Source: a virus
Lineage: Duplodnaviria > Heunggongvirae > Uroviricota > Caudoviricetes
Length of the DNA: 4,471 bases
IMG/VR virus record: IMGVR_UViG_2703718812_000015
Strand: one strand, 5' to 3'
Shown here: positions 1,483-3,456 of the stretch, piece by piece
Numbering within the stretch: position 1 is the stretch's first letter
Layout: each line of letters begins with the position of its first letter
Made by a program: the position numbers and the translations under genes
Notes under the pieces: model-generated
Told to the model about the DNA's origin: nothing
The model's input: the letters and a program-made list of their open reading frames with translations, nothing else
Database searches by the model: none

Positions 1483-3456
1483 TTACGGGTTATTCACTTC
1501 CACTGTTATACTTTCAATCAGCACCGGATATGTCGCACCGCTAGTGATATCGGTCACGCGCAATTTGTCTGCCGTAAACGTGCCGACCGGTGACTGTGAC
1601 AGCATGAACGGCGTCCCGTCCTTACCATCAATGACCGGCGTCACCTCAATACTGTTGTTACCGGCAAAACGGAAGCCCAGCGTATGCCATTCGTTATCAA
1701 ATGCGCCGAATGACCCCAGCTTCGTGTTCTGACCAGCATTTCCCTTGTGGTACATCACATTAAGGTCTGTGGCATCGCTCTGTACGTAAAACGACGCCAG
1801 CAGGTTATGACCGGCATTACCTTCCAGTGTGACGCCCTGAGGCAGTGAAGAAACCGGCCAGTACAGCGCCAGTGCGTACTGATTAGCTGTCAGTGTGCCA
1901 TCAACTTTAAAACGACAACTGATAAGCCCGCCCTTCTCCAGCAGGTCTGCGCCATTACCGGCATCATGCTGCATAAACCACGAGGAACTTCCTGTCTGTT
2001 TGGTCCACCTCAGCGCCTTACCTCCTGCAGCACCTGCATCATCAACTACCAATGCACGCCCTCCTTCAGCTCCCCATCCCTGCGGATTCAGTAAACCACC
2101 TGACTCTGTTGCACGGTAATAAAGCAGCGTTGTCACTGATTTCCCGTCCGTTGACGGTGTTGATGGTGTGTCCGGTGACGGCTTCTCATCCGGCGGCATC
2201 ACAACCTGTTCCCCACCCACCAGTTCAGCCGTCCGTCCTGCATGGAGAAGAATCGCTGAGGCAAGACGGTCAGAAATAATCCCCCTGCGTGCCCATGAGC
2301 TGAAATGGCTCGCACGGTCTGCTGACGTCCAGTTTGCCGACGTCCGGGAGGCCGCACCGTAATATCCTGATGCCGGAATATCCGGGTCTTCTTCCGGTTT
2401 GTTCGTCGGGACATTTGCTCCGTTCTCATCGGTCATGAACGGCACAAAGTGAATATTCTTTTCCGTTTTGTTTTTGTAACTGCCGTACACCGTCTGGTAA
2501 GTGGATTCGCTCTTCTGCTTCCAGAAATAAGTTGTGTCTCCACATATCCAGGGAACACCGTCAGCAGAACCACCAGCGCACTGTCCCACCATATCTGCAA
2601 GGTCCGTACGATATTGTTCCACTACTTCTGTAAAACGGGCTGTGTGATTTGCTGGCGTTCCGTCAAAGTCAAATTCCCCCTGCATCCACACCACGGCAAG
2701 CAGCACATTTTTCGGGTTCTTTGCCAGCGCGGCTTTTGTACGACCGATGAGATCCTTATACAGCGGCCTGCCCACACCCCAGCGGGTAGAACTCTCTGAG
2801 GCACCGGTCACGTCACTGTATGTTCCATCTGCCCCGGTGGTGAAAGCTGAACCACCACGGCAGCACGGAACCAGAAGAATACCCGCATTCGCCGGTATAA
2901 ACGGCAGCAGCTTTTTGGCAATATGCAGCCCCTGCCCCACGGTTCCGTACTGACCTTTCGACAGGTCAGCTTTCGGATGGTTAAGACGGCTCATGTCCTG
3001 TACATCATGCAGACAGTGGTCTGCCGGAATAATGTCGTTATATTTACAGGGAGCGCCATCCGGCGTCACTGTGCTGCGACGAGCCAGTTGCTTTATACGC
3101 GGGTCAGGACGGTCATATGTCTGCGGCAGAGGAAGCCCCTCACAGTAAGCCATGCCGTTCGACTGCCCGGCCAGTGGAATAACGTAGTAATAATCTGGCT
3201 CCGTGGTGACCACTCCCGGATAGCCACCATCCCCCGTGCCGGGCACAACCACTGGCGTGGTCACATCCCCCGTGCCGGGCACAACCACTGGCGTGGTCAC
3301 ATCCCCCTCCGCGGCAATCGCCTGCATCAGGGTATAAGGGGTTATGGCCACCGGACTACCAAACGGCTGCCAGCCCTCTTTCAGTTTGTGTGTCAGCTTT
3401 TCCGCAAGATCTGACGGCGACGCCGCCCTGACAACATCATAATGTTTAATCGACAT
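1483..3456 (-). CDS. nanS-p: Prophage-encoded sialate O-acetylesterase (NanS-p type): N-terminal DUF1737-like domain, SGNH/SASA esterase core, C-terminal beta-rich putative carbohydrate-binding domain
   Basis: 657-aa ORF, ATG at 3456-3454 with GGGAGA Shine-Dalgarno 6 nt upstream, stop TAA at 1485-1483. N-terminus MSIKHYDVVRAASPSDLAEKL..., a GQSNG motif (IPLAGQSNGMAY) typical of sialate-specific acetylesterases, and a long C-terminal domain. Size, architecture and position upstream of the S holin match NanS-p esterases of EHEC lambdoid prophages as I recall them. Confidence 0.82.
   Translation of the reverse strand: MSIKHYDVVRAASPSDLAEKLTHKLKEGWQPFGSPVAITPYTLMQAIAAEGDVTTPVVVPGTGDVTTPVVVPGTGDGGYPGVVTTEPDYYYVIPLAGQSNGMAYCEGLPLPQTYDRPDPRIKQLARRSTVTPDGAPCKYNDIIPADHCLHDVQDMSRLNHPKADLSKGQYGTVGQGLHIAKKLLPFIPANAGILLVPCCRGGSAFTTGADGTYSDVTGASESSTRWGVGRPLYKDLIGRTKAALAKNPKNVLLAVVWMQGEFDFDGTPANHTARFTEVVEQYRTDLADMVGQCAGGSADGVPWICGDTTYFWKQKSESTYQTVYGSYKNKTEKNIHFVPFMTDENGANVPTNKPEEDPDIPASGYYGAASRTSANWTSADRASHFSSWARRGIISDRLASAILLHAGRTAELVGGEQVVMPPDEKPSPDTPSTPSTDGKSVTTLLYYRATESGGLLNPQGWGAEGGRALVVDDAGAAGGKALRWTKQTGSSSWFMQHDAGNGADLLEKGGLISCRFKVDGTLTANQYALALYWPVSSLPQGVTLEGNAGHNLLASFYVQSDATDLNVMYHKGNAGQNTKLGSFGAFDNEWHTLGFRFAGNNSIEVTPVIDGKDGTPFMLSQSPVGTFTADKLRVTDITSGATYPVLIESITVEVNNP
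3228..3306. repeat. Perfect 36-bp tandem repeat (2 full copies plus 7 bp of a third) inside nanS-p, encoding VPGTGDVTTPVV twice in the inter-domain linker
   Basis: Checked base by base: 3228-3263 is identical to 3264-3299, and 3300-3306 repeats the first 7 bp. The unit is 12 codons and in frame. Confidence 0.95.

Follow-up and report, generated by a model that had tools for sequence, protein, structure and literature searches.

A 36-bp in-frame tandem duplication in the inter-domain linker of a prophage nanS-p-type gene: a probable single event inherited clonally

The subject of this report is a perfect 36-bp tandem repeat in a nanS-p-type gene carried on the minus strand (positions 1483–3456) of a 4,471-bp stretch of viral DNA, IMG/VR record IMGVR_UViG_2703718812_000015, hereafter called the window in its full length. 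The repeat lies in the linker that separates the N-terminal DUF1737 domain of the encoded protein, a sialate O-acetylesterase (NanS-p), from its esterase core, and it probably represents a single recent in-frame duplication of 36 bp in a flexible linker, near-neutral in its effect and inherited clonally. An original prediction made from the letters of the window had described the repeat as prone to slippage, as a possible means of tuning the spacing of the two domains and as a place where assemblies of multi-prophage genomes can be mis-joined. The repeat itself is confirmed, with small corrections to its extent and peptide, whereas the variability ascribed to it is not borne out by the genomes and contigs searched.

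Structure and position of the repeat

Tandem Repeats Finder (TRF) identified a single strong array at 3228–3307 (period 36, 2.2 copies, 100% matches, no indels, score 160), and direct comparison showed unit 1 (3228–3263; CATCCCCCGTGCCGGGCACAACCACTGGCGTGGTCA in plus-strand order) and unit 2 (3264–3299) to be equal letter for letter, which establishes the perfect repeat as real. Self-identity at period 36 extends over 80 bp, so that the partial third copy, CATCCCCC at 3300–3307 (G-GGG-GAT-G on the coding, minus strand), is 8 bp long and ends at 3307, not 7 bp long with an end at 3306 as first described; the same 8 bp occur at 3228–3235 and 3264–3271. The longest self-match run at periods of 10–100 is 44 bases in the window, whereas none of 30 shuffles exceeded 11 (mean 9.1), and the array is thus far above chance expectation. 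TRF also listed weak period-18 arrays within 3228–3301 (60–66% matches, with indels); GDVTTP and VVVPGT are barely alike at the protein level, and the period-18 signal is probably compositional.

Since 36 bp amount to 12 codons, both units are in frame, as had been proposed, on the minus strand within an open reading frame (ORF) of 657 codons plus stop that is the only long one across the repeat region. The peptide GDVTTPVVVPGT is encoded twice (aa 51–62 and 63–74) in the context ...IAAE-GDVTTPVVVPGT-GDVTTPVVVPGT-GD-GGYPGVVTTEPDYYYVIPLAGQSN..., and in the codon view the whole array covers aa 51–76, ending in GD. Indeed, the 12-residue strings that occur twice are GDVTTPVVVPGT (from aa 51 and aa 63) and its adjacent registers, while the string originally given as the repeated peptide, VPGTGDVTTPVV, is complete only once (aa 59).

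The ORF list, Pfam and the annotation of strain 2011C-4251 agree on the gene, whose product is WP_032362301.1, a carbohydrate esterase of the SASA family. Its DUF1737 domain ends at aa 50 (aa 4–50, 3307–3447; PF08410, E 3.4e-15) and the alignment to the solved structure 3pt5 (E. coli NanS/YjhS; E 4e-118) starts at aa 85, so that the repeat falls within the inter-domain linker (aa 51–84, 34 residues, 3205–3306), where it had been placed by the original prediction. The NanS-like SGNH/SASA esterase core spans aa 85–403 (2248–3204) with AGQSN at aa 96–100, and Pfam starts SASA at aa 95 (E 1.3e-10). A C-terminal lectin-like jelly-roll domain follows at aa 441–656 (1489–2136), recognized through 6yp6, the NanS-p C-terminal domain (E 1e-96), and through PF20350 (DUF6645; aa 506–623, E 7e-71). 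The gene thereby shows every testable defining feature of NanS-p, namely the esterase core, DUF1737, DUF6645 and a location between the Q and holin genes; esterase activity itself is predicted from sequence. Glycine, proline, threonine or valine account for 30 of the 34 linker residues, and a search of solved structures returned no match for aa 1–84. An AlphaFold2 model built on a 30-sequence alignment (mean predicted local distance difference test score 46, predicted template modeling score 0.38) was discarded as too poor to judge linker disorder.

Copy number in genomes and contigs

When 5,426 complete E. coli genomes were searched with 407 bp from around the repeat, 2,078 gave a match, only 275 of them on the linker and esterase side, and the matches in O157:H7 span exactly 36 bp less. 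Copy number was read with a synthetic four-unit query, against which alleles with more units rank first. Two units (a 216-bp span) were found in seven of the 275 complete genomes with this allele, those of strains 2011C-4251, SJ7, FWSEC0003, 2000-3039, 99E2750, UTAK-2 and UTAK-4, and spans of 252 or 288 bp, which would correspond to three or four units, were absent from all 5,426 genomes. The other 61 rows inspected, save one error-ridden assembly, have one unit (180 bp), the carriers including Sakai, EDL933, O55:H7 and O103:H2 12009. A 175-bp span in FRIK2533 was rejected as a third allele, since frameshifts in most neighboring genes of that genome point to assembly errors.

Exact look-ups in a collection of 15 billion proteins gave the same picture. 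The two-unit protein in the form encoded by the window was found on 193 contigs, all identical in sequence, the one-unit protein of O103:H2 type on 47 contigs and the one-unit protein of O157 type on at least 1,000. Forms with zero, three or four units on the window background, and with zero, two or three units on the O157 background, were absent from that collection as exact proteins. An exact scan of IMG/VR viral contigs and of JGI metagenome contigs returned no match to the two-unit DNA, which tells nothing more than that no additional allele turned up there. The claim that linker length varies between alleles therefore holds insofar as O157:H7, O55:H7 and O103:H2 have one unit and the O45 group has two (22 vs. 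34 residues), but only these two states exist in the collections. When alleles were compared and units counted, copy number was found to differ and the units to be identical, in place of the equal number with synonymous divergence that the original prediction had set against a variable repeat. No mention of the repeat DNA or of the repeat peptide was found in the literature searched, and a NanS-p diversity study of Shiga toxin (Stx) 2a phages, in its accessible part, gives lengths of 643–645 aa and does not discuss the linker.

A single origin on one haplotype

The locus of O103:H2 12009 equals the window minus one unit, with no differences in 4,406 bp, so that nothing but the duplication has changed on that haplotype. 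The seven two-unit genomes differ from the window at zero or one position over 4,442 bp (2011C-4251 is 100% identical), and four more assemblies, reached via the exact protein, match the full 4,471 bp with 99.93% identity or more; across these 11 assemblies the two-unit state comes with zero to two differences over ~4.4 kb, that is, on one haplotype. All seven genomes share the same neighboring genes, the same internal stop in a TerB-family gene and the same truncated ydfR, and six of the seven share the same protein accession, with the gene intact, the one in 99E2750 being annotated as frameshifted. Clonal inheritance at exactly two units since the event is thus shown. At position 3367 both 99E2750 (an added T, the annotated frameshift) and UTAK-2 (C>T) differ from the window, probably because of a systematic base-calling problem, both belonging to the CP1571xx accession series.

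Serogroup O45 is documented for four of the seven strains. SJ7, FWSEC0003 and 2011C-4251 are O45:H2 and fall in one cluster with O103:H2 12009 by whole-genome multilocus sequence typing (PMC7285328), O45:H2 being a Shiga-toxin lineage and the sister of O103:H2, and 2000-3039 is the CDC O45 reference strain.

The family at large indicates which state came first. The linker is the most variable stretch of the family alignment, with five or more distinct sequences, yet of 115 full-length cluster representatives 108 keep a Met1-to-AGQSN distance of 83 aa (it is 86 in three, 80 in two and 69 in one, 114 in total). The one-unit allele also has 83 aa, and because the other linker types share the one-unit spacing, one unit is taken as ancestral; removal of unit 1 restores that allele. 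The window protein, with 95 aa, has the longest distance seen. The rare length classes of 69, 80 and 86 aa belong to the P0073, P0099 and P0067 types, and the 933W/phi24B type reaches 83 aa by way of a longer DUF1737 loop and a linker shorter by three residues. An argument for purifying selection from the ratio of non-synonymous to synonymous substitution rates was dropped, as the coding sequences of Sakai and the window differ at only two nucleotides.

Proposed mechanism and effect on the protein

The ancestral one-unit allele would already have contained an 8-bp direct repeat, G-GGG-GAT-G, which stems from a pair of Gly-Asp dipeptides separated by 12 codons. Indeed, in present-day one-unit loci the unit is bracketed by two copies of CATCCCCC, within the codons GAG GGG GAT GTG and ACG GGG GAT GGT (the Gly-Asp of E-GD-V and of T-GD-G). 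Replication slippage or unequal exchange between these 8-bp copies may then have produced the 36-bp duplication, and either process yields exactly the product observed. Slippage driven by secondary structure was dropped as a candidate: the one-unit DNA forms no hairpin beyond shuffled controls (z −0.2 and −0.7), and plain microhomology slippage suffices. Judged from protein sequences, the other linker types have no second Gly-Asp, which may be the reason why only this type of linker shows the duplication. The event took place once the O45 group had split from O103:H2, in a defective Qin/Sp6-type prophage at ydfJ with the O103:H2/O45:H2-type haplotype.

At the level of the protein, the duplication would have extended the linker by 12 residues, from 22 to 34, with a gain of up to ~4 nm in contour length, and the family-conserved linker start E-G-D-V-T-T-P would have been duplicated, with the three folded domains and the reading frame left intact. 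Given intact domains and frame, the consequence is most likely none or slight, and the duplication most likely a near-neutral lineage marker.

Several points weigh against this interpretation. We infer near-neutrality, and the nearly constant linker length across divergent NanS-p types hints, as far as sequence comparison goes, at a length constraint that would be broken here, so that an effect of the two-unit allele, whether harmful or adaptive, is possible. Moreover, the serogroup is established for only four of the seven strains and not for UTAK-2, UTAK-4 and 99E2750, and exact look-ups overlook copy-number variants that bear another substitution.

Alternative explanations

The alternative that survives best, although it is unlikely, holds that the duplication is an adaptive change in a capsid-displayed enzyme, giving the esterase a longer reach or doubling a cleavage motif, and that it was selected in O45:H2. 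Its premise is that DUF1737 anchors NanS-p to capsids and that the linker serves as a tether and as an autoprocessing site. A cryo-electron microscopy preprint on phage phi24B describes the DUF1737 of gp84 as a hexameric decoration plugged into capsid hexons, with density that ends at Gly54/Ser57 and a cleavage proposed beside an SISSP motif (10.64898/2026.04.10.717836). The E50-G51-DVTTP of the window aligns exactly with E53-G54-SISSP of gp84, 113 of the 115 full-length representatives contain the motif EG[DS][VI][ST][ST]P, and the duplication starts at the last capsid-ordered residue of the gp84 alignment and doubles the conserved start of the tether. Also in favor of adaptation, every two-unit strain seen is fixed for the allele, and annotation shows an intact gene in six of the seven complete genomes; however, clonal fixation can occur without selection, and the gp84 cleavage site is itself just proposed. 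Furthermore, the window protein has a DUF1737 and a linker that opens at the conserved E-G boundary, but a co-encoded head module of phi24B type (podovirus, T=9) was not found: the O45:H2 gene resides in a prophage remnant with a lysis cassette cut by IS3 and without head or tail genes downstream, and Sakai Sp6, the intact relative, belongs to the siphoviruses, with a head module that does not resemble the one in the podovirus phi24B, so that capsid binding by the window allele would be assumed by analogy. DUF1737-esterases are also encoded by lambda-like phages such as 434 and H-19B, for which capsid binding would likewise be assumed by analogy with phi24B gp84.

A broader proposal built on the same analogy is doubtful to a similar degree, namely that linker length might be fixed throughout the family by DUF1737 capsid display with E-G-D-V-T-T-P as a hinge or self-cleavage site, the O45:H2 duplication then being a natural mutant of both tether length and cleavage site. 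If this were true, the duplication would alter the reach of the enzyme from the capsid, possibly that of a co-resident Stx phage, or its release, and the changed reach or release would affect interaction with mucus in a lineage of O45:H2 pathogens.

Still less probable, and already largely refuted, is the idea that the array is a true variable number of tandem repeats (VNTR) locus, at which frequent slippage lets linker length vary by strain or prophage copy and tunes domain spacing, as the original prediction had suggested. Two copy-number states do exist in nature, and once the duplication is in place its 44 bp of perfect offset homology are a better substrate for further slippage than the original 8 bp, as is established for RecA-independent rearrangement of tandem repeats. 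Against this stand the restriction to two states, with the two-unit state on one haplotype; the lack of any three- or four-unit allele, whether in complete genomes or as an exact protein; an O157 background that remains free of the duplication on its 1,000 or more contigs; the uniform protein of the 193 two-unit contigs; the absence of the two-unit DNA from the viral and metagenome collections; and a family spacing held at 83 aa. The copies are arranged head to tail and their number differs between strains, but recurrent multi-allelic change was not found, and the VNTR label is right in name only. Nor is the array a phase-variable contingency repeat, as its unit of 12 codons keeps both alleles in frame, and no promoter-like site was found at the repeat.

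An artefact of assembly or sequencing, be it a repeat that was collapsed or expanded or paralogous nanS-p copies fused into a chimera, is refuted for practical purposes and has a negligible probability. The gene is multi-copy, occurring at up to 12 places per genome, and most contigs that bear it are just 2–5 kb long: 162 index blocks among the 193 two-unit contigs have contigs of only that length. Nevertheless, the same two-unit sequence is present in seven closed genomes from several accession series and strain origins, the exact protein recurs on the 193 contigs, the flanks are collinear with and identical to those of a one-unit genome, and an array of 80 bp is shorter than an ordinary sequencing read. 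The identical array on 193 contigs, most of them short-read contigs of 2–5 kb, also contradicts the suggestion that the repeat is a site of mis-joining; breaks in short-read assemblies near nanS-p are caused by the long paralogous identity of prophage late regions, of which the DUF1737-coding segment (~96% identical in ~2,000 genomes) is an example, and not by the repeat.

That the repeat is an ancient, fixed structural motif of the NanS-p linker, as the weak period-18 sub-structure (60–66% matches) might suggest, is refuted and of equally negligible probability, given units identical at the nucleotide level and homologs with one unit, the state common to all outgroups.

Likeness to known systems and significance

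The closest counterparts of the window gene are the same gene at the same place in Sakai Sp6 (ECs_1527), EDL933 (WP_000023170.1) and O103:H2 12009 (WP_000023165.1), all with one unit and 645 aa, in contrast with two units and 657 aa in the window. The protein of 12009 is the window protein minus the 12-residue duplication, while the O157 protein differs at one further residue, G93 in O157 vs. cysteine in the window. The Sakai prophage is a full-length lambda-like element, whereas that of O45:H2 is a remnant. The nanS-p alleles of EDL933 were reported as active esterases on Neu5,9Ac2 (review PMC8065619).

The differing cysteine is Cys105 of the window protein (TGT; 3142–3144, minus strand), five residues past the catalytic GQSN block, in place of a glycine conserved in at least 90% of the aligned family members. 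It is the sole amino-acid difference from the O157 protein besides the duplication: Sakai, O55:H7 and EDL933 have GGT (Gly) at the corresponding codon, and the cysteine is shared with O103:H2 12009.

The NanS-p of Stx2a podoviruses (phi24B gp84/vb_24B_21 and 933W L0105) have the same DUF1737-SASA-DUF6645 architecture and share the conserved E-G boundary and, where the linker opens, the [ST][ST]P motif, but their linker sequence is different (GSISSPEEPGNRPTTSAPSVAPE) and without duplication. Virions carry gp84 attached to the capsid hexons through DUF1737 (10.64898/2026.04.10.717836), a placement that is putative for the window allele. The chromosomal NanS (YjhS) of K-12, as represented by 3pt5, has an SGNH/SASA core homologous to aa 85–403 of the window protein, and its 337-residue chain contains no counterpart of DUF1737, of the linker or of the C-terminal lectin-like domain. 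The loci used for E. coli typing by multiple-locus VNTR analysis (MLVA) are likewise tandem repeats, in frame or intergenic, whose copy number differs between strains; however, they have many alleles and change recurrently, whereas the nanS-p repeat has two states and a single origin.

The linker is also a boundary in the mosaic of the gene. The DUF1737-coding segment from ~3298 rightward is ~96% identical in ~2,000 genomes, a homology to the many nanS-p paralogs that sets in sharply where the repeat ends on the right; to the left, on the linker and esterase side, only 275 genomes match. This imbalance marks the linker as a recombination or mosaic boundary, with an N-terminal module of wide distribution on one side and esterase modules particular to the allele on the other.

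In practical terms, the 36-bp insertion is a marker that can be sized by polymerase chain reaction, and in the complete genomes searched it splits the two-unit group, which includes all documented O45 strains, from the O103:H2, O157:H7 and O55:H7 carriers of the allele. A natural extension of 12 residues in a family with near-invariant linker length could also offer a ready-made test of the importance of linker length or of the conserved GDVTTP motif. In other respects the repeat is an ordinary, lineage-specific product of slippage within a gene already known, and it is not hypervariable.

Prophage setting and additional observations

In 2011C-4251, nanS-p lies between the gene for the Q antiterminator and those for DUF1378, DUF826 and holin, in the prophage at the ydfJ locus, and the same position between Q and holin is annotated in Sakai Sp6 and EDL933; the Q gene is just past the right end of the window. 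According to the annotation of 2011C-4251, the O45:H2 prophage is a remnant in which IS3 cuts ydfR as well as the lysis region. Upstream of nanS-p, 95 nt from its start on the coding strand, an intrinsic-terminator-like hairpin (3551–3569, minus strand) has eight pairs, seven of them G-C, and a T8 tail. Late expression of nanS-p is known to depend on Q (review PMC8065619), and this predicted hairpin would fit antitermination-dependent expression of the window gene. A second strong terminator-like hairpin with a long T tail is present at 4436–4453 (minus strand), so that both are between Q and nanS-p, and terminator-like sites in the window number 12 vs. 4.2 expected.

At the other end of the window, a perfect 61-bp direct repeat (27–87 and 285–345) lies in two truncated ydfR (DUF1327) fragments that adjoin IS3. 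Positions 1–222 are missing from this location in Sakai and O55:H7 but present in O103:H2 12009. The region of the 61-bp repeat is a scar left by rearrangement in a lysis cassette undergoing decay. Finally, the TerB-family gene (~3934–4296, minus strand) is interrupted by an internal TAG (CTA at 4228–4230 on the plus strand), and the same pseudogene is also annotated in O103:H2, O55:H7 and EDL933.

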